In this document: in pieces, positions 378 through 53,335 of the stretch
Position numbering within the stretch: the first letter of the stretch is position 1
How the letters are laid out: each line of letters begins with the position of its first letter
From: a virus
Reading direction: 5' to 3' (one strand)
Length of the DNA stretch: 64,000 nucleotides
Virus record (IMG/VR): IMGVR_UViG_3300020411_004289
Span: 42,088-106,087 of that record
Translations under genes and position numbers: made by a program
Notes under the pieces: generated by a model
Databases searched by the model: none
Seen by the model: the letters and a program-made list of their open reading frames with translations, nothing else
Told to the model about the DNA's origin: nothing

Positions 378-3300
378 GTGGCCAGAGACTCTAATACATT
401 TACCAAAACAATTCTTTTTAAACCTAGCTCACTAAGGTCGCTTAGGGATGGTTCAACTAGAGTTGAAAACATTACCTTGGGTGGAAATAAAGAAAAAACG
501 CAGGGTGAAGCAAACCTCATAAGCACTTCAAGCTTTAGGTATGATCCTGCAGGATTTCCTCTTAAAAGCACTCAGCAGCTAAACGTAGACTGGTCAAAGC
601 TAGAAAACCATACATTCTTTAATTCAGCCCAAGTAAAGGTTCAAACTGCGTTTGACAAGATCATAAATCGATTTCCATTTGACGGAACAAAGTCTGAGTA
701 TATAGAGTTTAGAGATAACTTAACTGGTTTTGACAAGTACATTCTAGATACATTTCCTAAAAACTTAGGAAGTCTTAAATTTGATAGGGCATATAATAAT
801 GCGCTTAGAGTACAAGACTATCAAGGTGCAGGGTTAATATCTGGCAAAAAAGGCTCGACAGGACAAGCTGTTCTAGACTTTTCATATATGCCATTTAGCA
901 TAGAAACCCATATTTTTATCCCATCCGGATCAATAAATGACAACGAGGTAGTTTTACAAAAGATATCTGGGTCAAGTAGCGGATTAACCTTAGCAGTAAC
1001 ATCTTCTGCATATGAAACTAGTCCGCATGGCGAAGCAACGCTATGGGCGTATTTAAGCTCAGGATCCACAGCAATAAGTGCTAGTCTAGGAATAAAAAAA
1101 GGTGTGTTCAATCATGTCGCATTAGTGTACGACAGAAATGACACAGGAAAACTATTTATTTATGGAAACGGCAATGTACCTAACGAGTCGTCGAAAGCGG
1201 CTGTATTTAATGACTATGATTTTATAGAATCTTTAACTACGATTGGTAGTGGGACTGTTCATCAAGTTGAAAATATTAATTTCACACCTGTACAAAATCT
1301 TTCAGGCGCTCTTGATGAATTAAGATGGTTTCATAAAACTAGGAATAGAAATCAAATACTAAGCTTTAAAGATCGAAGTATATTTGCTAACAATCAAGAC
1401 GATCTTCGACTATACTTTAGGTTTAACGAGCCGTCTGGCAGTTTTGGAACCAGCTCCACTACAGGAAATGAAGATCTTGTCTTAGACTATAGTGGAAACG
1501 GTCTTCATACTAAGATTTCAAATTTTAATATGTCACTAAGAGAGACAGGATCTCTTCCAGTTGCTATGTCTCAAGAAGATCCTGCCCTATCTCCTATTCT
1601 TTTTCCGTCGTATAGACAGGTCGCAGACTTAGGCGTAAAAATGCTTCTTTCCGGAAGCCAATACGACTATAATAATCCCAATCTGATAACAAAATTAATA
1701 CCCAAACATTATCTTCTGGAAGCCTCTGAAAGAGAAGGTATGGAAAATGAGTGGGGTGACATTGGTGAGTCTCCGGGATATTATACAGATCAACCCGGTG
1801 GCTCAAAAATGAGATCACCTCAAATAATTGCATCTCTTTTATACATGTGGGCAGAGTCATTTGATGAAATGAAAATGTTTATAGATGAATTTGGAAGAGC
1901 ACTTAATGTAGATTATCTCACAGATCAAACAATAAGCGATCAGCTTTTACCCTTTTTAGCAAGATATTACGGTCTAAATTTGCCAAACGCATACGCTGAT
2001 GCATCAATGGCACAGCTTTTGGATAGGCAAGATGTAAGAATGGATAATGTTTTGGCTGTCAAGGGATTACAGGGTGTCCAAAATGTAATTTGGAGGCGTG
2101 TACTGTCAGGATTGCCTGAAGTTATAAAATCAAAAGGCACGCGATACTCAATTGAAGCGCTTTTTAGAAACATGGGAATTAATCCTGACGGATCTTTTAG
2201 AATAAGAGAGTATGGGGGCTCCAGGACAAAGTCCATAAGTGATACATTTGAAAAAAGAAGTGAGATCGCATCTATCTTAGATTTCTCAGGGTCAAAGTCT
2301 TCAGGAGGTGTAATCGACGGTTCTGGAAAAAGCAGCAACAGACCTTTGATACAATCTTCTTACCTGTCTTCTTCAAGATTAGAGCCGGGTAAACCTTTAT
2401 CAAAAATCCGGTATGGTGACTATGTTTCTGGAGTATCACCCTATTCTGGAGACGGACTATATACTAGCGGCTCCTGGACTGTAGAGGGGACATTTAAGCT
2501 AGAAAATCCACTAAAAAATCCATTAACGCAAAGCTTAATGAGAATGCAAACAACAGGCTCTAGAGCTTCAGGTGTAGCAAACAATTGGCTGATTTTTAAT
2601 ACTGTAGCAACTGCTTTACTTACTTCTTCTAATTCTCCGGGAACATTATCTCTGTACGGTAGGGTAGGAAGTGGATCAAGCGAGACTTTAAAACTAACCA
2701 TGACCGGTGTGAATGTTTTCGATGGAAACAAGTGGCATGTATCATTTGGGCGCTTAAGAAATGATGAAATCGGATCATATGTTTCTTCAAGCTATTTTCT
2801 TAGAGCCGGTAGGATGGGAACAAACTCAGTTTTAGAATTTTATACAACGTCTTCTTACTATAACGATCAAGGCGATACTATTCTAAACAGAGTGTCATCA
2901 TCGAACAATGCTTCTGGGTCATTTATTACGATCGGAAGTCAAAGCCTCATGTATGATACATCTACTACCTCCGGAGGCGGTTTTCTAAATGAAGTCTCGG
3001 ACAGCAAAGTAAAATATGTTAACTTCACCGGAAAATGTGCAGGAATAAGATTCTTCTCAAAAGGTTTGAGTGAAAAAGAGACGCTGCAGCACGTAAGAAA
3101 CTTTAAATCTCTAGGAGTTGAAAACCCACATGTAAACTTCAACTTCAACACGTCAGATGCAGGTTCTTTTGAAAGACTAAGGTTGAATTTGTCAATTGAT
3201 CAACCTGTAACAAAATCAAATGCCGCCGGAAACGTACAGATATTTGACTTTAGTCAAAATAATAATCATGGTCTAGGTACCGGCTTTGAAACAAATGTAC

Positions 3301-3905
3301 AGATAATTCGTCCTGAAAGATATGATTATATGATTCTCTCCCCGAGGTTTGAACTAGCGACTGATCCTAATAAGATACGAATACGAAGCTTTATTCAGGC
3401 TGAAAATGTTAGATCAAACGGAATGAGTGATTCTTCTTACGCACCTCTATATAGAATTCCAGAAAACGAAAAACCAAAAGATGACAGGCGTTTAGCAATT
3501 GAAGTGTCGTCTGTACAAGCACTTAACGAAGACATCATGAATATATTCTCAACTCTAGATTCACTAGACAATGCTATTGGGAATCCTGAACTAGTGTTTT
3601 CACAAGAATATAAAAGCTTGCGCCATCTTAGAAAGATTTACTTCAATAGACTAGATGACAAAATGTCACTTAAGAAATTCTTTGAATTCTTCAAGTGGTT
3701 CGATCAAACAATTGGCGATATCTTAGAAGAAGTAATTCCAAGCACTACAAAATATATGGGAACTAATTTTGTGATAGAAAGTCACGCGCTAGAAAGAGCT
3801 AAGTTTCCTTATAAGTACAGCGACATGTATGTCGGGATTCTAGATAGAAGAGAAGCTTCTGTAATATTTTTACAGCAATTTCTAGGAAGACTAAGGAAGT
3901 TTTAA
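378..3905 (+). CDS. Baseplate wedge-like protein (P2 gpI / T4 gp7-like segment) with two LamG/concanavalin A-like domains
   Basis: 1175 aa. LLPFLARYYGLNL...KSKGTRYSIEALFRNMGI resembles the gpI/gp7 wedge motif. LamG-type motifs FNHVALVYD...LSGALDELRWF and WHVSFGR...FTGKCAGIRFF. Confidence 0.6.
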   Translation: MARDSNTFTKTILFKPSSLRSLRDGSTRVENITLGGNKEKTQGEANLISTSSFRYDPAGFPLKSTQQLNVDWSKLENHTFFNSAQVKVQTAFDKIINRFPFDGTKSEYIEFRDNLTGFDKYILDTFPKNLGSLKFDRAYNNALRVQDYQGAGLISGKKGSTGQAVLDFSYMPFSIETHIFIPSGSINDNEVVLQKISGSSSGLTLAVTSSAYETSPHGEATLWAYLSSGSTAISASLGIKKGVFNHVALVYDRNDTGKLFIYGNGNVPNESSKAAVFNDYDFIESLTTIGSGTVHQVENINFTPVQNLSGALDELRWFHKTRNRNQILSFKDRSIFANNQDDLRLYFRFNEPSGSFGTSSTTGNEDLVLDYSGNGLHTKISNFNMSLRETGSLPVAMSQEDPALSPILFPSYRQVADLGVKMLLSGSQYDYNNPNLITKLIPKHYLLEASEREGMENEWGDIGESPGYYTDQPGGSKMRSPQIIASLLYMWAESFDEMKMFIDEFGRALNVDYLTDQTISDQLLPFLARYYGLNLPNAYADASMAQLLDRQDVRMDNVLAVKGLQGVQNVIWRRVLSGLPEVIKSKGTRYSIEALFRNMGINPDGSFRIREYGGSRTKSISDTFEKRSEIASILDFSGSKSSGGVIDGSGKSSNRPLIQSSYLSSSRLEPGKPLSKIRYGDYVSGVSPYSGDGLYTSGSWTVEGTFKLENPLKNPLTQSLMRMQTTGSRASGVANNWLIFNTVATALLTSSNSPGTLSLYGRVGSGSSETLKLTMTGVNVFDGNKWHVSFGRLRNDEIGSYVSSSYFLRAGRMGTNSVLEFYTTSSYYNDQGDTILNRVSSSNNASGSFITIGSQSLMYDTSTTSGGGFLNEVSDSKVKYVNFTGKCAGIRFFSKGLSEKETLQHVRNFKSLGVENPHVNFNFNTSDAGSFERLRLNLSIDQPVTKSNAAGNVQIFDFSQNNNHGLGTGFETNVQIIRPERYDYMILSPRFELATDPNKIRIRSFIQAENVRSNGMSDSSYAPLYRIPENEKPKDDRRLAIEVSSVQALNEDIMNIFSTLDSLDNAIGNPELVFSQEYKSLRHLRKIYFNRLDDKMSLKKFFEFFKWFDQTIGDILEEVIPSTTKYMGTNFVIESHALERAKFPYKYSDMYVGILDRREASVIFLQQFLGRLRKF

Positions 3906-5800: not shown

Positions 5801-8800
5801 ATGCCGAGACTAGGAAAAAAGATCAAAGTATACGATTTAAACCTTCAGGCTCAGCGTAGTCCGATAGGTGTTTCTGCTATTCCTGGAATAACATTTCCAG
5901 CAACAACCATGAAGTGTGGTGTTGACTCTGACCTAAAATCCAATGTTATAGTTTTCTCTTTAGGCTCAAGCTCTCCTGCTTCTCCTGATCGTTGGATTCA
6001 GCTAGACGGTCCTTTCTTAGGTCCGGTAACACTGACATATACAGCAGTGAGAGGCGATTATCCTGGAAAAATAGCTGTAGACGGAGTCCCCGAGGATCTT
6101 GCAGCCCCTGAACAAGTCGGCGACGACGTTCTTTTAGTTCAAACTTCGAGAGACGGAATTTACTGGAAAACTGTGAGGACAGGAACGGTTGCCGAGTTAA
6201 GCAATGAAGTATACACGACTATTTCTGTTAATGTTTATGGAGATTCTGGATATAAAATAAGAATAGCTCAGAAAAATCAATTCAATGCTTCAGAGGATGA
6301 ATATGCCATTTCGGTGATAACAGTTTCACAAGGAGAGATTTCAGGCTATCTAAATAACCCGCCGCGAATTTTACTACAAGATAACGACAATAGAACTGGA
6401 AGCTATCCAACAGTAGCCCGCACAGGAGATCCCAACTTTACAGGCAGAGCAAATGTGAGGTTTAATGATCAACAAACAGTAGAATACTTTAGCTCATATC
6501 CAGAAGCTGAAATTACTTTTCTTGATATTCCCCTAGATGCTCATTCTATCTCTTTGACAGGTTCAGCAGAAGATCCATCAGAGAACGTAAAAAAGCTTTT
6601 TGAGTTTCAAAAAGGCGTACTTCAATATTATAACGAATCCATCCTCGTAGACATTAAAGGAAAACAAACACCACGATCAGTGGCATATGCTTTTGCTAAG
6701 ACAGTCAACAGCGCTTCTATGGGCATAAAGGCAACCCCAGTTGGAGAAAAAGTAAAACTAAGACAACACAGGCCTTTAATTCCAAGCAACGGGCTAAACA
6801 TAACAACATCCAGCTATCCTGCTTTCTTCCTCCCTGCTTCAATAAAACAATTTACACAGCACGGCCCGGAAAATTATGCGTACCCTATGATTTTACCTGT
6901 GCCCGGAAGAAATGACTATGCCAGTGGATCGACTCATGTAAATGCACTAGTCGCTTCACCTAATATCACTGGATCTTTAACTGCCCCGGCGATTATGGGC
7001 ACATCAAATAGCGGCCCGGGAATACATTTTACCCCGGGAGAAAACATAGGACCGTTTGATGAGTCCAGGATTTACATCGACAATGACCTAAGTTTCTATA
7101 CTGAAGGGACCACAGTCAATGGCACAACTTTGCCAGGATTTGGTGAAAGACTAGGTTCTAAGGTAAGTCTATCTTTTGACATATCAACTAATGAACCCTG
7201 TTCTGTGTATTTTTCAACTGGAACAGTTTCACCTGGAGGTACACATGCATCAAGGGCAGATGCTCTAGCCGCAGGGGTTAATTCCGGGATAGCGTATTAT
7301 AATTTTGCGGAAAGCAAGTGGGAAATTGTAGGAGATCTACTTACCGGCAGTAATGTAGATATTTTTAATTCAAATCCACAGACAGTTGCAGATTCAATGC
7401 TAGCGATAATGCCCTCTCAGTATGACTATTGGTCCTATCATACAGCACCCTTGACTAATATGCTTAAGCATCAAGGGTCACCCACTGAGTTCGCAGGATT
7501 CCCTCTAGCCAGCAAGTTTGACCCTTCAGAAGCTCAGCTACTTGATATGTCAGACTATATTACAGCTCCATTCTTATTAGAAAAATTAGAGCTGACAGTT
7601 TCTGCATCTTATGCTATGACACAGGTGATGACGGACATAAATGGTGTCCATAATGCTTCGTTTATGCTACTTTTACAAAGAGATGCAGTGCCTTCTGGTT
7701 CGTTTACTTCTGAGCTAACATTGCTAAAAAATAACGGGTCAAACACTCTGACAGATATGACGTGGCTCGCGCCTAAGAAAAAAACATTTGAGACTCATAA
7801 AGATAGAAAAATTATCTGGTATGGTAGAATAGGAAGATACCTCGAATTCGATCACCCAACCCAGACTTATAGCTCTTTAGAAGAATTTAGAATTAGGGCC
7901 CCACATGTTTTTGCAGCATGCGATTTGTGGATACCACAGCTTAATCCTTACGGCAATAATCAGTATCCTTCCACTGGTTCTTTCACACTAAGAGGTTCTC
8001 CTAATACACCTATCGGATGTGGTGTGTCAAATAATGTGGTGCGACCTAGAGGTACGCGTACCTCCGCGCACGCGGATATTCCGGAGTATGCAGTCATAGG
8101 AAGAAAGACAGGAGGAAGAGATCTTATAAATATTGCAGACGGACGTTCTTTTATAAGCTCTATTGCAGGCGCTAAAGAGGTCGGCACACATTATGTAGGC
8201 TATGAAGCTAATTCTGCCGGCAGCAGATTTGTACCACTCTATGAAAAGGATTCATCTGAATCTCCTTTTCTTTTGCTCCCAACAGACAAGTTAATGCTTG
8301 TGCATGTCAATCAAAAAATGCCTAATCCCAACGACGACGTACTTACCTGGTCGAAAGGCGAAGACCAAGTAGTTCAGAAAAGATCAACACTTCTCCCGGG
8401 CAAATCTAAACTAACTCTTTTTGGCTCAATGGTGCGTGAAGGAAAAGCAGCAAATACGACCACACTAAATCAGCCACTCACGTCTGACGCAATACACGAG
8501 GATGTTAGAGATGATATATCGCCCTTAGGTGAGTCTCTATGCCTAGATCAGTGGCAAGTAGAGCCTGTGTCTACATATTACAAGTCCTATCTAGACAATA
8601 TTGTCACGGGGTCAATGTATAATCGAAATAACCCTACTCAGTTTATAAACCCACACACACCGCACGTTAGAAAGTCCCAAGGAACCACCGCAGGAACTGG
8701 TATCGTTTCTGGCCGTGTAGGGAGCCTCCTTTCTTCCGGAAGCATACAAAGATTTGTAAGGGCTGTAGACACAGAGCAGATATTTTACGACTCCACAGTT

Positions 8801-10102
8801 CCAAATTTGCAGGAAGTTGTTGACTTCTATCAAATGATGACACTCAATATCCTCGGTGGGTTTAATTATTTATTAATGTCACTCGATACAGAAGAGTGGT
8901 CGCAAGGCTGGTACATCCACGAAGCCTCCGCTGGCAGCTTAAGATTTAATAGAAGCGGGATGTTCGAACATATAGGGCATTTAAAAAGATCTTTATCACC
9001 ATCTACTGCGATAAAAAGAACTGATGGTGTTTCCGGACAAAACGCAAGGATCGACGGCTTATATCTCTTTTCTTCAGGAACACTACCGATTTACCCGGCC
9101 TCCATGTGGACGGGTCTGATGGAGACAGGGGTCAATTCCCAATTCTTTTTAATCGACTTCAAAGACGGTCAACCATCTACGGCCCTTGCGGGCTCGAGCC
9201 CGGGTTACCGGCCGGTCATGACACCGCAGTCAAAATATGGCTCGTCCTACATGCTTAAAATGCTCTGTGGTATTGGAGATTTTCATGGTATGCCTTTAAA
9301 TCAAGCCGCTGAAGCATCACCTCGTCGAGGGCCGGCAGCGGCGACCAGTGTCAATTTTGGGCCCGACCCAGGAGATTGGCCTCTCGACGGCTCCGGAGCC
9401 TCAGACGTAACGTTTTATCTAGGACCCGGGTCAACGAACCCGGAAAAATATATATGTGCAGGATCTAATGAAGGCCCCGGTAGCGGCTATCAAGGTAAAT
9501 TTGCTTTCGACTCCGATCCATCTAAAACCGCACGCAATTTTAGAGAAGTTGTTAATACATACTCAGAGCACCTTCGCGTCTTTTACGGCAACGCAGGCGA
9601 AGGAATTACAGTAACCTTAGCTTCAGGTTCAGTTACAGATTCACTTTCTATGGTTGGGGAGAAGGCATGGGATCAGTCAGGTCCCTCAGGGACCTCTAAC
9701 TGGGCCGGCACATACGGCGGAGAAACCTTCAGTTTGGCTGCTGACACCCTCCTATTGAGAGGTTTTAAGTACGGCCTATATAACGCTGTTCCTTCATCAC
9801 CCACTGCTGTCTTTAGAAGCGATACATACGGACAATTTAGAGACATGTTAGAGCCCAGGCTTTTTAGTGCATTTTTCAATAAGAAGAAGCTAGAGCGTCC
9901 TCCAGTAGTGATAACTTTTACTAGTAGAGCAGGTGAAAGAGGTGTGGCACCTGAAGAAACAAACTCACAAAATTTATCAAATCATGCAACTTCTTCCGTA
10001 CCGTTTCGAGATGGTGTTTCCAGAGACAGAAAAGATATTCAGCCAGATCTATTACCTAGAGTTGAACTCGAGATGTTTGACTTGAAGCTCGGTAGCAGCT
10101 AG
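5801..10102 (+). CDS. Large putative virion (baseplate/fibre) protein
   Basis: 1433 aa, Ser/Gly/Thr- and beta-rich, embedded in the structural operon. No family recognised. Confidence 0.5.
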   Translation: MPRLGKKIKVYDLNLQAQRSPIGVSAIPGITFPATTMKCGVDSDLKSNVIVFSLGSSSPASPDRWIQLDGPFLGPVTLTYTAVRGDYPGKIAVDGVPEDLAAPEQVGDDVLLVQTSRDGIYWKTVRTGTVAELSNEVYTTISVNVYGDSGYKIRIAQKNQFNASEDEYAISVITVSQGEISGYLNNPPRILLQDNDNRTGSYPTVARTGDPNFTGRANVRFNDQQTVEYFSSYPEAEITFLDIPLDAHSISLTGSAEDPSENVKKLFEFQKGVLQYYNESILVDIKGKQTPRSVAYAFAKTVNSASMGIKATPVGEKVKLRQHRPLIPSNGLNITTSSYPAFFLPASIKQFTQHGPENYAYPMILPVPGRNDYASGSTHVNALVASPNITGSLTAPAIMGTSNSGPGIHFTPGENIGPFDESRIYIDNDLSFYTEGTTVNGTTLPGFGERLGSKVSLSFDISTNEPCSVYFSTGTVSPGGTHASRADALAAGVNSGIAYYNFAESKWEIVGDLLTGSNVDIFNSNPQTVADSMLAIMPSQYDYWSYHTAPLTNMLKHQGSPTEFAGFPLASKFDPSEAQLLDMSDYITAPFLLEKLELTVSASYAMTQVMTDINGVHNASFMLLLQRDAVPSGSFTSELTLLKNNGSNTLTDMTWLAPKKKTFETHKDRKIIWYGRIGRYLEFDHPTQTYSSLEEFRIRAPHVFAACDLWIPQLNPYGNNQYPSTGSFTLRGSPNTPIGCGVSNNVVRPRGTRTSAHADIPEYAVIGRKTGGRDLINIADGRSFISSIAGAKEVGTHYVGYEANSAGSRFVPLYEKDSSESPFLLLPTDKLMLVHVNQKMPNPNDDVLTWSKGEDQVVQKRSTLLPGKSKLTLFGSMVREGKAANTTTLNQPLTSDAIHEDVRDDISPLGESLCLDQWQVEPVSTYYKSYLDNIVTGSMYNRNNPTQFINPHTPHVRKSQGTTAGTGIVSGRVGSLLSSGSIQRFVRAVDTEQIFYDSTVPNLQEVVDFYQMMTLNILGGFNYLLMSLDTEEWSQGWYIHEASAGSLRFNRSGMFEHIGHLKRSLSPSTAIKRTDGVSGQNARIDGLYLFSSGTLPIYPASMWTGLMETGVNSQFFLIDFKDGQPSTALAGSSPGYRPVMTPQSKYGSSYMLKMLCGIGDFHGMPLNQAAEASPRRGPAAATSVNFGPDPGDWPLDGSGASDVTFYLGPGSTNPEKYICAGSNEGPGSGYQGKFAFDSDPSKTARNFREVVNTYSEHLRVFYGNAGEGITVTLASGSVTDSLSMVGEKAWDQSGPSGTSNWAGTYGGETFSLAADTLLLRGFKYGLYNAVPSSPTAVFRSDTYGQFRDMLEPRLFSAFFNKKKLERPPVVITFTSRAGERGVAPEETNSQNLSNHATSSVPFRDGVSRDRKDIQPDLLPRVELEMFDLKLGSS

Positions 10103-10114: not shown

Positions 10115-10909
10115 GTGTCGTCTAAAAAGGTAAGTGTTAAAGATTTAAAAAGCACGCCATTTATTACTGCGTTCAACAATACCACACAACAAAATGAACC
10201 TGTAATATTTCCTAATGGAATAAAAGTCAATCTAGATTCCAGCCTGTTTAATAGAGGTATAGAAATAACACCTACAACTGCTCCTGATGTTACCACAAAT
10301 CGGTTGTATAATGAAAACGGTACATTAAAATTTAATGGAAGCCCAATCGGCTCAGGCGGCGGCGGTGCTTCAGGACCTTCCTTTTTTGACGAGCGTGTAG
10401 CAGATAAAATCTATACCACTGGATCCGTAACGATCAACAGCAATAGTACTGCAATGACTTCTCTCGATGTAATTCATGACTATACGACTCAGACTTTTGA
10501 AAATCAGCTAAGTAGTGGCGAAGGAGGAGGTACTGTCTTGCAGTATGGCACCGGTACGACTACAGCTGGATATTTGTACTATCTGGAGACGACAAAGGCG
10601 TGGACACAAAGTACTGCTACAAGTGTAGCATCAGGAGCTAGTCAAATATTAGGCATAGCACTAGGGACTAGTCCAACAAGTACAGGTATGCTGCTAAAAG
10701 GATTTATAAGAATAAGCTCGAGCAGAATCTCCGGAACGCCTCAAATTGGAAGCCCAGTGTACGTTTCTACAACTGCAGCAGCCTATACATTTACCGCACC
10801 TTCAAGTGTGAATCAATTTGTTAGAATTGTAGGATATTGTCTGGATACGCATTCTAGCGATATTTTACTCTGGTTCGACCCAGACTCAACTTGGGTGGAA
10901 ATATCGTAA
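10115..10909 (+). CDS. Putative fibre/decoration protein
   Basis: GTG start after a strong SD (AGGAGGT). RLYNENGTLKFNG plus a Gly linker is fibre-like. C-terminal GIALG...MLLKGFI...GSPVYVS...TAPS...VRIVGY resembles capsid cement/decoration domains. Confidence 0.5.
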   Translation: MSSKKVSVKDLKSTPFITAFNNTTQQNEPVIFPNGIKVNLDSSLFNRGIEITPTTAPDVTTNRLYNENGTLKFNGSPIGSGGGGASGPSFFDERVADKIYTTGSVTINSNSTAMTSLDVIHDYTTQTFENQLSSGEGGGTVLQYGTGTTTAGYLYYLETTKAWTQSTATSVASGASQILGIALGTSPTSTGMLLKGFIRISSSRISGTPQIGSPVYVSTTAAAYTFTAPSSVNQFVRIVGYCLDTHSSDILLWFDPDSTWVEIS

Positions 10910-11922
10910 TGGCAACAATTACTGTAAAGAAAGATGGCACAGGCGACTATACATCACTAACTTCAGCATTCGCAGCTGCTAATACATACGACGTTATAGA
11001 AATACAAGATAGCGGAACTTATTATGAAGGCAACCTCTCGAGAATTGTTTCTCATCTCACCATACGTGCTGGAACTGATGCTAATGGAAATAAATACACA
11101 CCTACACTGAACGGTGGGGGAACAACTGATTGCGCAATAAAGTTTTACAACAACTGGGTTATAGATGGGTTGACGATTACCGATTATGATGGAACAGCAA
11201 CTTACGGTGCAGGTCTAGTTTCTGTATCAGGGAATCGGGTTGTCACAATAAAAAACTGTACGATTCACAACTTGGACGATACAGCCATATCAGGCTTGAA
11301 AAACTTTAGTACAGTTGAGAATTGTATTATATACGATATTCGAGGGTCAGCAGCAAGAGGTATAGACTCGGGTACTCAATCTGCGACAATTAACAATTGT
11401 TTAGTATACGATGTCGAGCATGATGGAATTCAGTCGACACCTTCAGCAACAGTTATTGAACACTGTACGCTGCACAACGTCGGGTATGGCGGCGGAACTG
11501 GCGGTTATGGAATTGCCGCAACATTAGGCTCAGTAAAGTTTTGCATTGTATCTGATCCAAACCATAATATCAACAGCGCCGGTATCAGAGCAGCTATTCA
11601 TATCTATAATTGTGTCTCAGGCAGCGAAGGCGCCACCAACGGAAATTATTATGGCGGCGCAGGCACAGGAGATATTGAAGTAAACCCAATGTTAGTCACA
11701 GGATCTTTTATGCCAAGCAGCCTATCCCCGTGTCTAGGCGCCGCAGTTGGTTCAACTAGAACCAGTGATATCACAGGTGATTCAGTTACATGGCAATACA
11801 CGCATAAAGTAAACGGTGTAAGTGCTTCAGCAACGCCGAACGACATGGGTGCATACGAATATTCATATGCATCAGTCGCAGGTATTAATACTAATAAAAT
11901 TGAAAAGATTTCGGGTGTTTAA
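10909..11922 (+). CDS. Right-handed parallel beta-helix (pectin-lyase fold) protein, possible tailspike/depolymerase
   Basis: Likely start ATG 10909 (TAATG overlap). ITVKKDGTGDYTSL...DVIEI..GTYYE is pectinesterase-like. Coils IKNCTIHN/VENCIIYD/INNCLVYD/IEHCTLHN. C-terminal SPC...DMGAYEY. Confidence 0.7.
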   Translation: MATITVKKDGTGDYTSLTSAFAAANTYDVIEIQDSGTYYEGNLSRIVSHLTIRAGTDANGNKYTPTLNGGGTTDCAIKFYNNWVIDGLTITDYDGTATYGAGLVSVSGNRVVTIKNCTIHNLDDTAISGLKNFSTVENCIIYDIRGSAARGIDSGTQSATINNCLVYDVEHDGIQSTPSATVIEHCTLHNVGYGGGTGGYGIAATLGSVKFCIVSDPNHNINSAGIRAAIHIYNCVSGSEGATNGNYYGGAGTGDIEVNPMLVTGSFMPSSLSPCLGAAVGSTRTSDITGDSVTWQYTHKVNGVSASATPNDMGAYEYSYASVAGINTNKIEKISGV

Positions 11923-12000
11923 TGTTTGTCGCTAGAGAGATATATCAAAGCTTCACGAATAAAAGTCAAGAACTATACCATCGTCAGGCAGTAAGGGCAA

Positions 12001-12007
12001 ATAGTTA
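12001..12007 (+). promoter_or_regulatory. Putative late promoter motif (ATAGTTA)
   Basis: Matches the recurring intergenic ATAN(T/G)TA motif. Lies 5 nt before ATG 12013. Confidence 0.5.
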
Positions 12008-12012
12008 AAACC

Positions 12013-15818: not shown

Positions 15819-15833
15819 AGGTGTAGAACTAAC

Positions 15834-37785: not shown

Positions 37786-37791
37786 ATCTAA

Positions 37792-38421: not shown

Positions 38422-39005
38422 TGCAATCAAATACACAGATTCCGAAAAATGTAGGCGCTTCGATATCTTCAAGGTATGATGATAGAAAAGGTTTGGGCTA
38501 CGGCCAGCTAGATCAAAAATTTCAAAAATCTCGCCCTGCTGGAAACTCCTTTCCATACAAAGACTTAGACAATTATGAAGAGTCTGATGATGTAAATGAT
38601 GAGTCCCACGATGCAGTAAGTAGCAAGGTTTATGACTACCCTAAAACAGATGCTGCTGGTGATGCTAAGGCAACAGATCCACTTTATTTTGTAGGTGCAG
38701 CAACAAAGTTGCACGCGTGCTTTGAAAAATCAGACGAAATATTATGTGAGATAGAAAAAGCCTCCAAAATGATACCAGTTTTCGATATCATAGAAACAAT
38801 TGGAGGTTATGATACCTCTAAGGCATTCGACATACGTTCTTATAGAAGGACAGGAACTAAAAAAGGTTGGTCAGAAAGACCTCCGGTAGGAAAAGATGAG
38901 TACGAAAAAGAAATAGAAGAGGATGAATTTTACAATTTGAAAGATTTGTCTGCAATTCAAAGGCCAACTTTGGGTGAATGTTTCGATTTTCTTAGACATA
39001 CTTAA
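38421..39005 (+). CDS. Hypothetical head-region protein
   Basis: 194 aa, acidic, TAATG-coupled. Confidence 0.5.
   Translation: MQSNTQIPKNVGASISSRYDDRKGLGYGQLDQKFQKSRPAGNSFPYKDLDNYEESDDVNDESHDAVSSKVYDYPKTDAAGDAKATDPLYFVGAATKLHACFEKSDEILCEIEKASKMIPVFDIIETIGGYDTSKAFDIRSYRRTGTKKGWSERPPVGKDEYEKEIEEDEFYNLKDLSAIQRPTLGECFDFLRHT
38998..39004 (+). promoter_or_regulatory. Putative late promoter motif (GAC-ATACTTA)
   Basis: Immediately upstream of the scaffold gene. Confidence 0.55.
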
Positions 39006-39014
39006 TCAGGAAAC

Positions 39015-43929: not shown

Positions 43930-45105
43930 ATGGCTACATTTGCAAATACAACGAGTCCTACACCATTCGGGTTTTTTGACTCTGACGCAGACTTTCAAAC
44001 TGAAGCTGACTCATTAGTCACGTTTGTAAAGAGAAAGTTGGGTGATGATATCCTGAGTGTCGAGTTGACAAAAAAACAGGTCTGGGCATCTTTTGAAGAA
44101 GCATTCTGTGAGTATGGTTCGATAATAAATCAATATCAAGCAAAGTCACAGTTAGCAAATCTTCTAGGTGCAGCAACTGGTTCATTGACCGGAAGTGAAC
44201 AAAGATTTCCTAGAGAGAATTTTGAGTTCATGCTCCGCAGAGCAGAGCCGTATGCAATGGATGCAGGATTAGGAGGGTCATACAATACATTGTCAGGATC
44301 AATTACTGTAAGTAAAAATGTCCAAGACTATGATTTGTATACTGACTTAAAAGATTCCGACGGCAACGCTTTGTTTGATAACGCGGCAAATTCACCAAAG
44401 TCTAGGATGAAAATTTTAGAAGTATTTCACTTTACTCCTTCTAATTCATATAGATTTTTTGATACGTCGAGTGCTATAAACTATCTTGCAAATGAGTTTG
44501 CTTTTGAGTCATACACACCCGAGACTATATTTTATGTTCTTCCTGTATTTGAAGACGTTTTAAGGGGTGGGATGCTAGACATGTCCTCTCGGGTAAGAAG
44601 AAGTAACTATTCGTACAAGATATCTGGCACAAAAATCAGATTCTTTCCAAAACCGACAGGAGATCCAGTTCGCCCAAAAGAGATATGGATACGGGTGGGA
44701 TTCTCACCTGACCCAATGAACCCTGCATATAAAGATGAGTCAATCTACGGTGTGAGTAATCTTTCAAATATCCCGTACGGGAGGCTAACTTATGCCAAGA
44801 TAAACTCTATAGGCCGACAGTGGATTCGACAATATGCACTAGCACTTTCTAAAGAGCTTTTAGGGCAGATTAGGTCAAAATTTAGCAGTGTACCTATCCC
44901 AGGTGCTGATTTGACTCTTAACGGTGCTGACCTAATATCACAAGGCAGAGAAGATCAAACTTCTTTAAAAGAAAAACTAACTACAATGTTAGAAGAGCTA
45001 ACTTACAGCAAAATGTTAGAAGACGAAGCTTCAGCCAGTGAAAATTTAACACGTATTCTCAAGAATATTCCTGTGCCTAACGGCAAAGCGATTGTGATGG
45101 GCTAA
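43930..45105 (+). CDS. Neck protein / head-tail adaptor (T4 gp13-like)
   Basis: KRKLG...VELT..Q and WIRQYALALSKELLGQIRSKF..VPIPG..LTLNG. Confidence 0.8.
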   Translation: MATFANTTSPTPFGFFDSDADFQTEADSLVTFVKRKLGDDILSVELTKKQVWASFEEAFCEYGSIINQYQAKSQLANLLGAATGSLTGSEQRFPRENFEFMLRRAEPYAMDAGLGGSYNTLSGSITVSKNVQDYDLYTDLKDSDGNALFDNAANSPKSRMKILEVFHFTPSNSYRFFDTSSAINYLANEFAFESYTPETIFYVLPVFEDVLRGGMLDMSSRVRRSNYSYKISGTKIRFFPKPTGDPVRPKEIWIRVGFSPDPMNPAYKDESIYGVSNLSNIPYGRLTYAKINSIGRQWIRQYALALSKELLGQIRSKFSSVPIPGADLTLNGADLISQGREDQTSLKEKLTTMLEELTYSKMLEDEASASENLTRILKNIPVPNGKAIVMG

Positions 45106-47045: not shown

Positions 47046-50000
47046 ATGATGGCTGAGCAAACATTTAGATCACCTGGCTTTTTTGAGCAGGAAATTGACT
47101 TATCGGCCCGCAAGGTGTCACCGTCCGGAACTCCGGCAGGTGTCATTGGAACAGCGGAAAGGGGACCAGCGTTTGTCCCTGTAACTGTCGGATCATTTGC
47201 CGACTTTGAAACAAAATTTGGATCACTAGATACAAATAGATTCGGACCTTATGCGGTTCGAGAATTCTTAAAACATAGAACGTCGCTAACGTACATGCGT
47301 GTTTTGGGTGCTGGATCAAATGAGACAGCAGCCGAGATTTCAACTACGAATACAGAAGGTACTGTTAAAAATGCAGGCTTTGTTGTAACGGGCTCTGTCA
47401 AGACAGCAGGGACCGACTTAAGAGGACAGGGATGTGTGCAAATACTTGTTGCAGCACATAAGCCGCCGGCTCGCGAAGCTTCAGGTTTCCCATCCTTTAC
47501 AGACAATGATAGCTTCTTTTCTAATAGAGACGCAACATCTGATCAAGTCAATGTGGTCCGGGCCGTCATTCTTACAGCATCTGGAACACAGGTTCAGCTT
47601 CTAGAGCCTAACAAGGCATATAGCTACGACAATACTGTGCTGGATACTGTTGGTGTTGATAGCATTGGAAGGTCACCTCTAACTAGCGCAAAATACTTCA
47701 AGTTATGCATAAGTTCTTCCGCCGGCGCGGCTTTCGGCAACGATGATAACAGCCCGGGCATTAGAATTCTTTCTGCTTCTCTAGATCCTGAAGATGGCAA
47801 CTACATCTCAAAGGTTCTAAACACAGACCCACTCAAGTTTCAGAAAGAGGAGCATCTTCTCTATCTTGACTACGCAGTTGAGCATGACTTAGCACCTGTC
47901 GTTTCTAGTAGTGTGGGTGGATGCGTTGCTTTGCTTTCAGGGTCAGCTAACACTAGCGCAGGCACAAACTCGACGCAAAACTTCAATGCATTGTTCGGAA
48001 GATTTGACACAAGATACACTACGCCTAGAACAACCAGCTTTATCTCGCAGCCATATGGTTTCAAAGAGTTTGATCTATTCCACTTTGAGTCTCTTTCCGA
48101 TGGATCATATGCGAACGATAAGTTTAAGGTTTCAATTGCAAACTTGCGTGCATCAACAGATCCAAACAACAAGTATGGAACTTTTGAAGTACAGATCAGA
48201 TCGTTCTCTGACACAGACACTAATACACAGATTTTAGAGAGGTATCCAGAATGCTCCCTAGATCCTAAGTCTGATCGATACATTGCACGTCAGATTGGTG
48301 ATAAAAAAGTATCATATGATTTCGATCAGGAGGATCCGGACGAGAGACGATTGGTCATTCAGGGCAAGTACCCGAATGTTTCACAGCGTGTTAGAATTAG
48401 AATGAATTCTGCTGTTGAAGATAGAGATATTCCTCAAGATGCGCTTCCGTTTGGTTTCCGGGGTATACCGGTCTTGAAGACATCTGATACATTAACAGAT
48501 AAGACAACGTCAGCACTGGTTGCTGCAAATGGAACCACACTAGGTACAGGCGCAGAACGACGACTCGGCGGTGGCCTAGGCACAGCTCCTGCTGCAGCTC
48601 TTGGAGCGCTCTCTGGTTCTATTGTGCCTCCTCTTCCCTTTAGATTTAAGGTTACACGAGGTGCCATAAGTACTTCTACTGCTCCTTCATTTGTAGGAGA
48701 AGTAGGTACGAACGAAAGAGTAGATGGACGTTTTTACTGGGGTGTTAAGGGAACGAGGGTTCCTCTTACTGGATCACTTTCTAAATCGATTCTGAATACC
48801 AATGTAAGCTCTGTTGCCAATCCTTTGGTAGCTGCTTATACAAAATTCCAAGGAATCGAAAAACTAGACATGCTGGTTTCCGGCTCTGCGCAAGATGAGT
48901 TCAACAATAATAAGTTTACACTAGCTCGCGTAGCTTTCTACAACAAAGACCAAGGAAACGGCCTCTCAGATGTCTTCACAGAGTTTACAGGAAGCTCGCG
49001 TGAGCATATGAAGGAAGCATCTTATATCCGCAACGGAGACCCAGATAAGACGACATACACAGTCGATGACGGGACTTCGTACGGAGATACCAGATTTACA
49101 CTAGCTTCCCTGATCCAGACAAGTTCTGTAATATTCAACAGATTTACAGACTTCGCCAAGTTTACAAACATATTCTATGGCGGTTTCGACGGTGTCAATA
49201 TTCTTGATGAAAATGCTAACTTCTTCAAGGACAAAGCATTGTCAGCTGATGTCGGCGGAGGTGCTCTTGAAGGTGACCCGGATTTAGGACTATCACAGAT
49301 CGGGAGCAAGAATCAGCAGGGTGAAGGAAGAAGAAATAATGCAGTTGCTTCTGTAAGAAGAGCAGCAGAAATTATGACTGATCCAATGTCAGTTAATATT
49401 AATATCCTTGCGATCCCAGGAATCAGAGATACATTCGTATCAGATCATGCGATTGATTTAACAAAAAAATACTCGCAAGCGATCTATCTAATGGATCTCA
49501 TCAAATATGATGAAGACGGAAATCGACTATACGATGACTCTACAGCTCGAGTCGACGTAAGAGAGACTTCTGAAAACTTTGAAGGACGAGCAATTGACAA
49601 TAACTACGGTGCAACGTTCTTCCCAGATGTTTTCATCAATGATCAGGTAAATAATCAAATCGTAAAGGTCCCAGCATCAGTCGCCGCACTAGCTACTCTG
49701 GCGTTTAATGATAAGGTTGCATTCCCATGGTTTGCACCCGCCGGATTTAATCGAGGCGCGCTGGACTTTGTTGTCAATGTTGAAAATAGACTTACGTCAG
49801 GCGACAGAGACACACTTTATGATGCACGAATTAATCCAATTGCTGTTTTCCCACGTGCAGGATTTGTGATCTTCGGACAGAAGACACTACAGATGGCAAA
49901 ATCAGCCCTTGATAGAGTTAATGTTCGCCGCTTGCTTCTAGAAGTAAAGAGGCAGGTTGTTAGAGTAGCGGACAAGATTTTATTTGAACCTAATACATCT

Positions 50001-50225
50001 CAAACACGAGCTCGTTTCGTGTCTCAGGTGACACCTCTCTTAGCTTTGATTCAAGCCCAGGCCGGAATCGAACAATTTAAGGTGGTATGTGACGATACAA
50101 ACAATTCAGTTCGGGATGTTGAAGAAAATAAACTAAACGGACGTATCGTTGTGGTCCCAACAAGGGCTGTTGAATTCATCGCTGTAGATTTTATTATCAC
50201 AAACAGTGGTGTGAGCTTTGAATAA
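47046..50225 (+). CDS. gp18: Tail sheath protein 1 (gp18-like)
   Basis: FRSPGFFEQEIDLS, GTAERGPAFVP, PWFAPAGFNRG, RINPI, IFGQKT, DRVNVRRLL, FEPN, PTRAVEFI. Confidence 0.92.
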   Translation: MMAEQTFRSPGFFEQEIDLSARKVSPSGTPAGVIGTAERGPAFVPVTVGSFADFETKFGSLDTNRFGPYAVREFLKHRTSLTYMRVLGAGSNETAAEISTTNTEGTVKNAGFVVTGSVKTAGTDLRGQGCVQILVAAHKPPAREASGFPSFTDNDSFFSNRDATSDQVNVVRAVILTASGTQVQLLEPNKAYSYDNTVLDTVGVDSIGRSPLTSAKYFKLCISSSAGAAFGNDDNSPGIRILSASLDPEDGNYISKVLNTDPLKFQKEEHLLYLDYAVEHDLAPVVSSSVGGCVALLSGSANTSAGTNSTQNFNALFGRFDTRYTTPRTTSFISQPYGFKEFDLFHFESLSDGSYANDKFKVSIANLRASTDPNNKYGTFEVQIRSFSDTDTNTQILERYPECSLDPKSDRYIARQIGDKKVSYDFDQEDPDERRLVIQGKYPNVSQRVRIRMNSAVEDRDIPQDALPFGFRGIPVLKTSDTLTDKTTSALVAANGTTLGTGAERRLGGGLGTAPAAALGALSGSIVPPLPFRFKVTRGAISTSTAPSFVGEVGTNERVDGRFYWGVKGTRVPLTGSLSKSILNTNVSSVANPLVAAYTKFQGIEKLDMLVSGSAQDEFNNNKFTLARVAFYNKDQGNGLSDVFTEFTGSSREHMKEASYIRNGDPDKTTYTVDDGTSYGDTRFTLASLIQTSSVIFNRFTDFAKFTNIFYGGFDGVNILDENANFFKDKALSADVGGGALEGDPDLGLSQIGSKNQQGEGRRNNAVASVRRAAEIMTDPMSVNINILAIPGIRDTFVSDHAIDLTKKYSQAIYLMDLIKYDEDGNRLYDDSTARVDVRETSENFEGRAIDNNYGATFFPDVFINDQVNNQIVKVPASVAALATLAFNDKVAFPWFAPAGFNRGALDFVVNVENRLTSGDRDTLYDARINPIAVFPRAGFVIFGQKTLQMAKSALDRVNVRRLLLEVKRQVVRVADKILFEPNTSQTRARFVSQVTPLLALIQAQAGIEQFKVVCDDTNNSVRDVEENKLNGRIVVVPTRAVEFIAVDFIITNSGVSFE

Positions 50226-50266: not shown

Positions 50267-53200
50267 ATGGCAGAGCTAACTTTTAAGAGCCCAGGTGTTA
50301 GCACACGGGAAATTGATTTAAGCGGACCAACTGCAATACAGCCCAGAGGAATTCCAGCGGGCATCGTTGGAACATCAATAAGAGGGCCGGCATTTGTCCC
50401 TATTACATTCGCAACTTTTCAAGATTTTGTCTCGACGTTTGGTAACACAGACGGCGACAAATTTGGACCGTTAGCAGTACATGAATGGATGCGAAACGCA
50501 GGTGCAGGAACTTATGTAAGAGTCCTAGGCATCGGAGACGGCAAAGCTAGAAATACAGGAGGTTCCAACCCAGGTAACGTAACTAACGCTGGATACGTTG
50601 TTGGTGATCGCCTTCCGAAAGCAAACGGCATGGTGGGTGATAATCCTTACACTCACACCGCCGGCCGCGGCCCTCTAGGAAGAACCTATGCACTAGGTTG
50701 TTTTATGTCTCAGGCTAATGGAAGCACAGTCTTTACAGATGCAGGATTAGGCCAGCTAGCTGCTGGTTCTGATAGAGCTAGGCCTATTCTTCGCGGTGTG
50801 GTCATGGCACCTTCTGGGGTTGTAATCTCCCTAAGTTCTTCAAACGCAAATACTACAAACAACGTACCCTCAACTACGAACAGAGCATTTGGTAATTTCG
50901 CTGCAGCAGCCGACGCCGGAAATCCATTCGGCGATGTTGTTACGAGTAGCGGTAAATCACAGTTTGTGATGCTACTAAACGGTCACAAAGTTTCTGATTC
51001 GTACGGCAATATCGTAACAGCATCTTTTGATCCGAAATCACCTTCTTATTTCGCAAACGTCTTTAATACAGACCCAACTAAGATTCAAGAAGCTGGTCAT
51101 TATCTTTATGCACACTGGGACATAGATCCAGTTTTGGCAGTACCTTCTGCTGCAGGGATGGGTCTCTCAGAGCGTTACAGCGATAGAACAACAATCGGCT
51201 TTATGCTCTCAGGGTCAAAAGGAAGAAATACTGGCGAAGCTTCTTCAGCTACTAACGCCGGCGCTCCAAACTGGGAAAGTTGGGAAGATAGGTACAGCGC
51301 TGCTTTCTCTCCTGCAGTTATTTCTCAAAAGTTTGGAGGTTCAAACCTCAATCTGTTTAAGGTGCACTCCAGAGACGATGGAGTAGTAGGTTCCCGAGCA
51401 TTTAAGATTACAATTGAAAATGTTCAAGCTTCAACTAATGAAAATAATAAGTTTGGAACATTTGACTTGTTGGTAAGAAGACTGGACGACAACGATATGA
51501 ATCCTGTCGTTCTTGAGAGTTTTCGAGGCCTGGATTTAAATCCTGGATCTGATCGATATGTTGCTAGAGTGATTGGTGATACAAACACATTCTATGACTT
51601 TGACAAAAAAGCCGGCGGACAAAAGCTGGTAATCGAAGGAAAATATCCAAACAGTTCACAGTTTATTAGAATTGAAGCAGATAATGATCTAGACCTAGGC
51701 AGATTGGACGACACAGCATTGCCTTGTGGTTTCCGTGGATTACATCACTTAGTAACTTCCGGATCAACCGTGGGCGATCTGGCAGCATTCACAGGATCTA
51801 TCGACGGTAGCTCAGAATTCGATTCTTTGCTAACTTGTAAGAACATAACTCAGTTACCTGTTCCGATGAGAGAAACTGTTGCTGTAGGGGTTGCGCCAAA
51901 GAAAACACCTGAAGCTGCACTTACTTGGGGCGTTCAGTTTGAGCTAAAAGACAGCACAACTCAACCTAACCAGAATCAAAAGCTAGATCCTTCTATATAC
52001 GGATTTACAAAGTGGTTCCCAAATTTTCACACTTCATTCCAGAACCCATGGGTTGGTGATAATGAAGGAACAGTTGATCTAAATGGGTGTGTCTTAGATG
52101 CAGACAGATATCTTAACAATCTATTCTCTTTAGAGCAGGTTGAGGTGATCACGTCTTCAAACAATAAGCCAGATGCACAGCAATGGTCAGCTGCAACCTA
52201 TAGAAGAAATGGAACATCAGTAGGATCACTTACAGATCGAGACGGCAACACGGGTATTGGCTCTAGATTCCTAGATGCTTCGATTGACTTTAGTCACTTA
52301 CCAACACGAAAATATCTTAAGTTTTCATTCCCTCTACAGGGAGGCTTTGATGGCGTAAATATTTTCGACAAAGACAAGTCCAAGCTAACAGACAATGCAG
52401 CTCGTCGAGAAATGGACGATTCATCAGCACAGGGAGGGACTTCAGGACCGACGGTTGCTGCATACAGAAAAGCAATTGACGTAATGGAAGAGAAATCAGA
52501 CGTCGATATTCAGCTGTTAGCAATCCCAGGACTTCGTCATGAATCCGTGACTGACTATGCTGTCGAATCAACAGAAAGAAGATTCGACGCGCTCTTTATT
52601 ATGGACATTGAAGAGAAAGATACAGTTGATGCTTACGTCACTGCTTCACTTGATCAAAATGTCAACGTAACAAACACAGTAAATAGATTCGGTGGGCGCT
52701 CGATGGATTCTTCGTTTGCGGCTGCGTACTTCCCAGACGTTGTAATAACAGATCCTTCGACTGCTACAAACGTACAATGCCCACCATCAGTTGCTGTTTT
52801 AGGTGCATTTTCACTAAATGACGCTGTTGCTCACCCATGGTTTGCACCAGCTGGATTTACACGCGGTGCACTATCATCTGTTGTAGAGTCACAAGTAAAA
52901 TTCAATAGAACAAACTTAGATGAACTATACACAGTTGATGTGAACCCGCTAACTTCTTTCCCACACACTCCGGGTGTAGTGGTCTTCGGCCAGAAAACAC
53001 TTTTGGCTGCACAAAGTGCCCTTGATAGAGTCAACGTAAGAAGACTTTTGATTGATGTGAGGAGAAAAGTTAAGAGAGTTGCTAATTCTCTCTTGTTCGA
53101 GCCAAACAGAACAGAGACGTTAGCTAGATTTAGTGCTGCTGTGACACCAATTTTAACACAAATTCAGCAGCAGCAAGGACTAGATCGATTTAAGGTACAG

Positions 53201-53335
53201 ATTGATACTACTACGACTACGCAGGCAGATGTTGAAAACAACACAATACGAGGCAAGATTTTCTTGCAGCCTACACGCTCCGTCGAATTCATCAGTCTAG
53301 ATTTCGTGGTGACAAATGCTGGCGCCGACGTATAA
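50267..53335 (+). CDS. gp18: Tail sheath protein 2 (gp18-like paralog)
   Basis: FKSPGVSTREIDLS, RGPAFVP, PWFAPAGFTRG, VFGQKT, DRVNVRRLL, FEPN, PTRSVEFI. Confidence 0.92.
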   Translation: MAELTFKSPGVSTREIDLSGPTAIQPRGIPAGIVGTSIRGPAFVPITFATFQDFVSTFGNTDGDKFGPLAVHEWMRNAGAGTYVRVLGIGDGKARNTGGSNPGNVTNAGYVVGDRLPKANGMVGDNPYTHTAGRGPLGRTYALGCFMSQANGSTVFTDAGLGQLAAGSDRARPILRGVVMAPSGVVISLSSSNANTTNNVPSTTNRAFGNFAAAADAGNPFGDVVTSSGKSQFVMLLNGHKVSDSYGNIVTASFDPKSPSYFANVFNTDPTKIQEAGHYLYAHWDIDPVLAVPSAAGMGLSERYSDRTTIGFMLSGSKGRNTGEASSATNAGAPNWESWEDRYSAAFSPAVISQKFGGSNLNLFKVHSRDDGVVGSRAFKITIENVQASTNENNKFGTFDLLVRRLDDNDMNPVVLESFRGLDLNPGSDRYVARVIGDTNTFYDFDKKAGGQKLVIEGKYPNSSQFIRIEADNDLDLGRLDDTALPCGFRGLHHLVTSGSTVGDLAAFTGSIDGSSEFDSLLTCKNITQLPVPMRETVAVGVAPKKTPEAALTWGVQFELKDSTTQPNQNQKLDPSIYGFTKWFPNFHTSFQNPWVGDNEGTVDLNGCVLDADRYLNNLFSLEQVEVITSSNNKPDAQQWSAATYRRNGTSVGSLTDRDGNTGIGSRFLDASIDFSHLPTRKYLKFSFPLQGGFDGVNIFDKDKSKLTDNAARREMDDSSAQGGTSGPTVAAYRKAIDVMEEKSDVDIQLLAIPGLRHESVTDYAVESTERRFDALFIMDIEEKDTVDAYVTASLDQNVNVTNTVNRFGGRSMDSSFAAAYFPDVVITDPSTATNVQCPPSVAVLGAFSLNDAVAHPWFAPAGFTRGALSSVVESQVKFNRTNLDELYTVDVNPLTSFPHTPGVVVFGQKTLLAAQSALDRVNVRRLLIDVRRKVKRVANSLLFEPNRTETLARFSAAVTPILTQIQQQQGLDRFKVQIDTTTTTQADVENNTIRGKIFLQPTRSVEFISLDFVVTNAGADV

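Follow-up and report, generated by a model that had tools for sequence, protein, structure and literature searches.

A [S/T]-G-S tripeptide enriched in exposed virion proteins of a lineage of large T4-like phages, and its possible role as a glycosylation site

The locus

This analysis concerns the tripeptide [S/T]-G-S ([ST]GS, hereafter the tag) in proteins encoded by IMG/VR virus record IMGVR_UViG_3300020411_004289 (G000). The window, the whole 64,000-nucleotide stretch that was analysed, is G000:C1:42088-106087, the final 64 kb of a 106,087-bp record, and every gene lies on the + strand. Coordinates are those of the window unless given as contig coordinates. An initial annotation had noticed the tag in surface virion proteins and proposed it as an O-glycosylation sequon, read by an enzyme encoded elsewhere, that coats the whole particle. 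CheckV rates the record as 21% complete, so the phage is probably very large.

Matches to PHROG and Pfam identify a T4-like late region with genes for terminase, portal, prohead protease, gp23-like capsid protein, gp13-like neck protein, two sheaths, tube and tape measure. A RuvC-like resolvase, a primase and an Mre11-Rad50 fusion are interspersed among them, and gp25-like and probable gp6-like baseplate genes sit just upstream of the window. The closest capsid proteins are those of an uncultured 484-kb phage (LR756508), Flavobacterium phage vB_FspM_immuto (immuto), Microcystis phage Mel-JY01 and Rhodothermus phage RM378.

Tripeptide counts

Contig-wide counts cover the 84 open reading frames (ORFs) of the 106-kb contig. 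All 8000 tripeptides were scanned, with each protein judged against its own composition. SGS ranks first (58 occurrences against 20.8 expected, p = 1.7e-11) and TGS second (38 against 16.1), for 96 sites in all. Observed/expected ratios (O/E) depend on the order and identity of the residues: 2.8 for SGS, 2.4 for TGS, 1.8 for SGT, 1.7 for AGS and 1.2 for TGT, with GSG, GSS, SSG, GGS and SGG at 1.2-1.5 and SGA, SGN and SGV near 1. The pattern is ordered and specific, not generic clustering of serine and glycine. Shuffling residues within stretches of 10-50 residues leaves about 40 sites (z ~9), and global and local shuffles together give z of about 9-13. The variant ratios and the local shuffles rule out low-complexity serine/glycine runs as the source. 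Internal repeats and paralogy are ruled out as well: collapsing repeats keeps all 96 sites, the only clear paralogues are the two sheaths, and no site context repeats another.

The flanks are also biased. A hydrophobic residue stands at -1 in 51 of the 96 sites and at +1 in 51, against 30 expected, which agrees with the earlier remark that such a residue often precedes the tag. Position -2 is hydrophobic beyond expectation too, and charged residues are depleted around the sites. In external virion proteins the five-residue pattern hydrophobic-[ST]GS-hydrophobic is found 22 times where 2.3 are expected; the remaining proteins have one copy against 1.1 expected. Codon choice at the sites resembles that of the background, with only GGA mildly preferred for glycine. 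Because the codons match background and both serine codon families are used, selection acts on the tag at the protein level; the same usage rules out a motif in the DNA.

The excess falls on particular classes of protein. The large fibre- and baseplate-region proteins hold 70 sites against 21.1 expected (O/E 3.3) and the capsid, neck and sheath block 17 against 4.1 (O/E 4.1). Portal, protease, scaffold region, tube, chaperone and tape measure together hold 2 against 4.5 (O/E 0.44), and the 47 non-virion ORFs 7 against 7.2 (O/E 0.98). External virion proteins as a whole stand at O/E 3.4 and the remaining proteins together at 0.8. The per-protein counts of the initial annotation were reproduced exactly, and the enrichment that it supposed holds over shuffled controls, with an excess specific to exposed virion proteins.

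In the fibre and baseplate region, the tag is carried by a peripheral protein of 1175 residues with a weak Laminin_G_3 match (378..3905; 11 sites against 2.0, the latter in line with the two or so copies previously estimated) and by a 1433-residue protein (5801..10102; 10 against 2.3). Two smaller proteins of 343 and 317 residues (10891..12966) make a minor contribution with two sites each, against 0.8 and 0.3. A 519-residue baseplate-region protein (contig 40902-42461) reaches into the window with its C-terminal end only (1..374), which has no site; the part upstream of the window has seven against 0.73 expected. Further along lie a 427-residue structural-region protein (22044..23327; 6 against 0.8) and an 823-residue jelly-roll protein, concanavalin-A-like or pentraxin-like, called 23340 below (23340..25811; 11 against 1.0). 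The gp23-like major capsid protein (40645..42549; 4 against 0.86) has its sites at residues 136, 151, 204 and 460 of 634, the first three preceding the stretch that aligns with T4 gp23. The gp13-like neck or adaptor protein (43930..45105) has 3 against 0.42. Sheath paralogue 1, of 1059 residues (47046..50225), has 6 against 1.1, at residues 115-648, and paralogue 2, of 1022 residues (50267..53335), has 3 (at 315, 498 and 509) against 1.2, which alone is not significant.

Other proteins of the same region are nearly or wholly free of the tag. Four late-region proteins of 950, 1213, 595 and 237 residues (12966..22029) have one site in about 3000 residues; these four consecutive proteins have no Pfam or PHROG match and are almost tagless although tag-rich proteins flank them. 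The portal, prohead protease and scaffold-region proteins (32743..40616) have two sites in total, and the tail tube, chaperone ORFs and 2213-residue tape measure (53388..61846) have none against 1.6 expected. A 630-residue protein at 3907 with a strong Laminin_G_3 domain, the same fold as in 23340 and the 1175-residue protein, has one site. Since this protein and the four at 12966..22029 are almost tagless, the distribution is not plainly one of structural versus non-structural proteins. The zero counts first noted for the Mre11-Rad50 fusion, portal, tube and tape measure, and the single near-C-terminal copies in primase and terminase, were found again. The claim that the tag coats the whole particle is an overstatement, given the tube, the portal and several large late-region proteins without sites.

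Protein families

Protein 23340 has more than 1200 metagenomic homologues and, by tblastn, none among 50,697 deposited phage genomes, cultured phages included. All 120 of its closest homologues (43-74% identity, all metagenomic) are enriched, with 940 sites against 148 expected (O/E 6.3). In the alignment, which took in 114 of the 120, seven positions carry the tag in 40-93% of sequences; glycine is almost invariant there, and serine and threonine swap on both sides of it. A further 46 positions hold the tag in fewer sequences. Outside the seven core sites there are 348 occurrences against 110 expected, but the sequences are related and occurrences are therefore not independent, so the count of distinct positions is the safer measure. 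At the variable positions TGS ranks second of 2468 tripeptides by O/E and spans 40 distinct columns, SGS spans 39, and similar tripeptides are depleted (O/E 0.64 for SGG, 0.61 for SGA, 0.74 for SGN and 0.40 for NGS). Insertion columns make up 3.4% of residues and 18% of non-core occurrences. The alignment indicates that sites turn over within families, with gain in new loops.

The sheaths behave similarly. More than 2800 homologues were found, and 120 of them give O/E 3.5; the tag occurs in these 449 times, at 35 positions, and never beyond residue 746. Their conserved C-terminal core has no tag, against 16.5 expected by composition. Only about 300 residues of the model of sheath 47046 are matched by minimal sheaths of about 350-385 residues, and as these come from its two ends (model range ~11-1042), its middle probably consists of extra inserted outer domains. 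All six sites of sheath 47046 (115-648) lie within the stretch that minimal sheaths lack. Sheath relatives with no site or one site (L132, L136 and L137) come from contigs of only 5-27 kb; four long contigs were searched for the glycosyltransferase pair described below, three of them too incomplete to score absence.

AlphaFold models were made of 23340 (predicted local distance difference test score, pLDDT, 83.5) and sheath 47046 (pLDDT 84.7), which together hold 17 sites. In the models the sites fall at C-terminal ends of strands, directly before helices, or in long or low-confidence loops, with one inside a helix. The expectation that sites would map to loops or secondary-structure boundaries is thus borne out by both predicted structures. 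One uniform beta-hairpin geometry, such as a two-residue hairpin, can be set aside, as the two models show no shared local geometry. The best structural neighbours of the 23340 model are carbohydrate-binding modules (4dqa, laminin G and neurotoxin receptor-binding domains); 23340 is therefore probably a receptor-binding protein.

Related phages

Ratios for other phages are repeat-collapsed. On this measure G000 stands at 2.6 overall and 3.3 in its large late proteins. The T4 late region is at 0.52 (TGS 0 against 5.5), cyanophage S-CAM22 at 1.2-1.4, pelagiphage HTVC008M at 1.44, LR756508 at 1.0-1.2 (no site in either 824-residue sheath), Mel-JY01 at 1.65 and RM378 at 2.1. The structural half of immuto reaches 2.6, with SGS at rank 1 and SGT at rank 2, and its non-structural regions give 0.6 and 1.35. 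One of its carriers, the 373-residue protein immuto35A_214, has 12 sites. SGS or TGS holds rank 1 in most of thirteen related IMG/VR loci. An independent record, G007 (185,578 bp, rated 100% complete), ranks SGS first and TGS tenth over its whole genome. Its sites are concentrated in the sheath, three 400-residue proteins and a 5829-residue giant, and several proteins of 1100-1500 residues have none. The excess is specific to one lineage of large aquatic T4-like phages that share a pair of GT4 glycosyltransferases (below). T4, S-CAM22 and the Laminin_G_3 protein at 3907 rule out a generic property of beta-rich virion proteins.

Three local patterns were seen in these comparisons. The G007 giant (G007:C1:133605-151094) has 29 [ST]GS against 8 expected, and its neighbours of 1257 and 1166 residues have none. 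The giant baseplate and fibre proteins of S-CAM22 (L019, 42-91 kb) are about threefold enriched in other tripeptides (GSG 41 against 12.4, SGA 31 against 9.5, SGY 18 against 5.3). HTVC008M (L040, 44-55 kb) has paralogous fibre proteins with repeated modules of the forms ...NLIIK-SGT-TTA... and ...IDSGSTITLDATT...

Sugar island

A sugar and phosphonate island of about 26 kb stands immediately upstream of the window, flanked by fibre genes and by the gp25/gp6 baseplate genes; it answers the earlier supposition that modifying enzymes are encoded elsewhere. Its transferases (contig 9558-34986) are two of family GT2, three of GT4 and one GT77-like (nucleotide-diphospho-sugar transferase). Other genes encode uridine-diphosphate (UDP)-glucose dehydrogenase, two epimerase/dehydratases, several methyltransferases, a nucleotidyltransferase-kinase, a further cytidylyltransferase and a sulfatase-family (alkaline-phosphatase/sulfatase) protein. 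A phosphonate module (contig 20939-27465) comprises a fusion of cytidylyltransferase and phosphoenolpyruvate (PEP) mutase, a split phosphonopyruvate (thiamine-pyrophosphate) decarboxylase, a short Fe-alcohol dehydrogenase, a B12 radical-SAM enzyme and the sulfatase-family protein. Among the 31 island ORFs there is no membrane-bound priming transferase, flippase, polymerase, ligase or oligosaccharyltransferase; the absence of the last four follows from the fact that 30 of the 31 have no membrane segment. Soluble enzymes of this kind would suit a soluble acceptor that receives its sugars one after another.

The two final GT4 genes of the island (contig 32567-34986), some 7 kb upstream of the window, form a conserved adjacent pair, and both carry Glycos_transf_1 domains. 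Clear tblastn matches to both (at least 90% query coverage) occur only in immuto and Mel-JY01, and to the first gene only in LR756508 and RM378; homologues of the pair are also present in records G001-G003, G007 and G009. Matches in other phages are all weak and partial, among them those of the second gene, by tblastn, to glycosyltransferases of Streptomyces, Arthrobacter and Microbacterium phages (24-32% identity, E 1e-7 to 1e-4). A search for homology of the pair to enzymes with known protein acceptors gave nothing significant. The first homologue in Mel-JY01 (L043:37442-38933; 83441-84932) is annotated as two ORFs of 191 and 302 residues and may be split or frameshifted.

The order PD-(D/E)XK nuclease-GT4-GT4 is kept in four lineages: G000, immuto, Mel-JY01 (with GuaB inserted) and G007 (contig 31706-34986; L041:17965-21884; L043:35376-40303; L047:902-4204). 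The sugar genes behind the pair differ completely, being phosphonate and uronic-acid genes in G000, amino-dideoxy-sugar genes in immuto and a 2,3-dehydratase/aminotransferase set in G007. If the pair primes, a constant pair ahead of exchangeable sugar genes would be the layout expected of a surface glycan under diversifying selection.

Interpretation

We tentatively favour the view, at somewhat less than an even chance, that [ST]GS is a selected surface tag that serves as acceptor site for O-glycosylation by soluble enzymes of the phage itself. A recognition site for a modifying enzyme would best explain the sequence specificity, the occurrence in unrelated folds, the exclusion from buried cores and internal proteins, and the gain in new loops. 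The sequon proposed by the initial annotation is thus partly supported, by circumstantial evidence: the enrichment, the specificity for exposed virion proteins, enzymes encoded elsewhere and the loop or boundary positions agree with it, and the coating of the entire particle does not.

On the glycosylation reading, late in infection the GT4 pair would put a first sugar on the serine of the tag. Its hydroxyl being the most constrained, the third position is the best candidate for the acceptor. The tags so modified would lie in loops exposed on the sheath outer domains, the capsid surface, the neck, the baseplate periphery and the fibres, whether these are folded or still assembling. The remaining island transferases (two GT2, one GT4 and one GT77-like) would then lengthen the chain, and the methyltransferases and the phosphonate module, acting through a cytidine-monophosphate (CMP)-activated intermediate, would decorate it. 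The resulting coat may shield the particle or modulate adsorption. A fuller version would make this a virion-wide, phage-encoded O-glycosylation code: the GT4 pair primes hydrophobic-[S/T]-G-S-hydrophobic loops, interchangeable islands build lineage-specific coats, and the coat here is a methylated uronic-acid glycan with 2-hydroxyethylphosphonate, giving a phosphonoglycan-coated particle. We consider that version, taken as a whole, unlikely.

Several observations weigh against glycosylation of the tag. Three residues carry little information, and non-virion proteins do not avoid the tag, which occurs there at the expected frequency. The GT4 proteins match only generic GT4 enzymes, and their likeness to the adhesin-priming pair GtfA/GtfB is not significant. 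Common descent alone could make the pair and the tag occur together. Mel-JY01 has the pair (the first gene annotated as two ORFs) and only a modest excess, of 1.65; RM378 has only a distant first GT4 and an excess of 2.1. In immuto and Mel-JY01 the neighbours of the pair are the PD-(D/E)XK nuclease and replication genes, an arrangement that is also compatible with a target in DNA. A short structural connector could account for the hydrophobic flanks and for the placing at element boundaries as well. Finally, the fibre repeats of HTVC008M, a phage with no GT4 pair, repeatedly contain SG[ST] flanked by hydrophobic residues; because of those repeats, part of such a signal can be structural.

The last two points lead to a structural alternative, which is less likely: [ST]GS could be the short hydrophilic connector that this lineage favours between secondary-structure elements of exposed domains, with nothing attached, selected for folding, solubility or resistance to the extracellular proteases of (probably Bacteroidota) hosts. 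Hydrophobic residues at -2, -1 and +1 with few charged ones, sites at strand C-termini and helix N-termini in both models, the nearly invariant glycine with interchanging serine and threonine at conserved sites, the HTVC008M repeats and the SGS excess of RM378 with its distant GT4 homologue would all be expected of such a connector. Against it, the near-equivalent loop tripeptides SGG, SGA, SGN and NGS are unenriched or depleted in the 23340 family. Structural proteins of T4 and of the cyanophage, as rich in beta structure and loops, show no excess, and the protein at 3907, with the same fold in the same phage, has a single site. Local geometry also varies from site to site, several sites lie in low-confidence flexible loops, and gains are concentrated in lineage-specific insertions.

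It is slightly less likely again that tag and island are unrelated, with the island modifying phage DNA or the host surface and the tripeptide excess separately caused. Published phage glycosyltransferase clusters hypermodify DNA (bioRxiv 10.1101/2023.12.21.572611; PMC13326640) or have been read as host O-chain modifiers (PMC7029224), and the nuclease-GT4-GT4 synteny among replication genes of immuto and Mel-JY01 would suit the first role. Set against this, G000-G003 have no match to PF00303 or PF12851 (thymidylate-synthase-like hydroxymethylase, TET/JBP), a weak negative given records 21-48% complete and a PF12851 control that matched no genome. A host-envelope glycan would need the membrane-bound priming transferase, flippase, polymerase and ligase that the island lacks, and in G000-G003 the island sits inside the tail-fibre/baseplate region.

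Improbable is a different reader of the tag, whether phosphoryl or phosphonyl transfer (with the CMP-activated phosphonate as donor, for example, and the alkaline-phosphatase/sulfatase-family protein of the island as enzyme), a host enzyme, or a motif-binding assembly factor or chaperone. The specificity of the tag does argue for recognition by a binding site, and the island has the cytidine-triphosphate (CTP) transferase/PEP-mutase fusion, split decarboxylase, Fe-alcohol dehydrogenase and sulfatase-family protein that phosphonyl transfer could draw on. But the phosphonate genes are not conserved among the relatives with the tag: immuto, Mel-JY01 and G007 carry other sugar pathways, and only the GT4 pair is shared by all, and no kinase-like or chaperone-like gene was found travelling with the tag. 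Chance or a compositional artefact has practically no probability left: single proteins such as sheath 2 are not individually significant, but the first two of 8000 ranks, the shuffles, and replication in 120 + 120 homologues and two other genomes refute it.

If the glycosylation reading is right, virion glycosylation would extend beyond a handful of mycobacteriophages and be a general, genome-readable property of very abundant aquatic phages. The puzzling sugar islands in tail-fibre regions of marine T4-like phages would gain a function, and a simple sequence signature would predict which particle surfaces are coated. Adsorption, stickiness, grazing and decay of marine viruses, and their recognition by antibodies or lectins, would all be affected by such a coat, and in the G000 phage it would place organophosphonate on virus particles, which is relevant to marine phosphorus cycling. 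The idea is directly testable in immuto, a cultured phage of Flavobacterium sp. LMO8 that combines the tag with the GT4 pair. Should the tag carry no attachment, an explanation would still be wanted for so strict a selection of a single tripeptide on exposed loops.

Relation to known systems

A full-text literature search found no description of a dispersed sequon or [S/T]-G-S tag on phage virion proteins. Known bacterial sequons do not explain the sites, as they are not enriched in the external virion proteins: the Bacteroidota O-glycosylation sequon D-[ST]-[AILVMT] has O/E 0.86 and the N-glycosylation sequon N-x-[ST] 1.07. General O-glycosylation in Bacteroidota also works by lipid-linked assembly, a flippase and periplasmic transfer, unlike an island whose ORFs, with one exception in 31, have no membrane segment.

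The virions of mycobacteriophages of the Che8 type, in work by Freeman et al. in 2023, are reportedly O-glycosylated by phage-encoded glycosyltransferases, on C-terminal Ser/Thr-rich extensions of capsid and tail-tube subunits. The likeness lies in glycosyltransferases of the phage's own, proposed exposed virion targets and a proposed sugar shield. The second GT4 gives weak matches to actinobacteriophage glycosyltransferases (E ~1e-7). The differences are that the tripeptide here is internal and dispersed over many unrelated proteins, the tube has no site and C-terminal extensions play no part; the phage lineage and hosts are also different, and the sugar island is far larger.

In Gram-positive bacteria, GtfA and GtfB prime long serine-rich repeats of one secreted serine-rich-repeat adhesin. 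As in that system, the GT4 pair consists of two adjacent soluble cytoplasmic proteins of GT-B/GT4 type with proposed serine acceptors, and later transferases would extend the chain. The comparison is one of sequence only, and the Gtf1 chains 4pqg and 5e9t match the pair only at E 0.26 and 0.9. The acceptors differ, being scattered tripeptides in folded virion proteins rather than serine-rich repeats.

Large aquatic T4-like phages with sugar-pathway genes in or near the tail-fibre/baseplate region have been described before. In pelagimyophages and cyanomyophages, a glycosyltransferase-rich 'host recognition cluster' was interpreted as a means of altering the O-chain of the host (Zaragoza-Solas et al. 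2020, PMC7029224). The function of core glycosyltransferases of 'moraphages' was left open (PMC12619734); Bacteroidota are their predicted hosts, and in the present case the nearest cultured relative is a phage of Flavobacterium. Neither study reports a sequence tag on virion proteins, which sets the present case apart.

The capsid of chlorovirus PBCV-1 is glycosylated by virus-encoded enzymes at non-canonical sequons (reviewed in PMC9614988, PMC5408694). The proposed process would resemble it in that the virus supplies its own enzymes, which act in the cytoplasm independently of the host and glycosylate virion protein at a short and unusual sequon. In PBCV-1, by contrast, N-linked glycans are carried by one major capsid protein of a eukaryotic virus, and the enzymes are unrelated; the sole enzyme likeness is a generic GT4 match of B736L to the GT4 pair.

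Minor observations

Rare copies of the tag lie 4-13 residues from the C-terminus of three proteins. They are found in the primase (26405-27358; residue 313 of 317) and the terminase (31099-32688; 517 of 529), and a third stands near the end of a 132-residue protein (36135-36533; 123 of 132).

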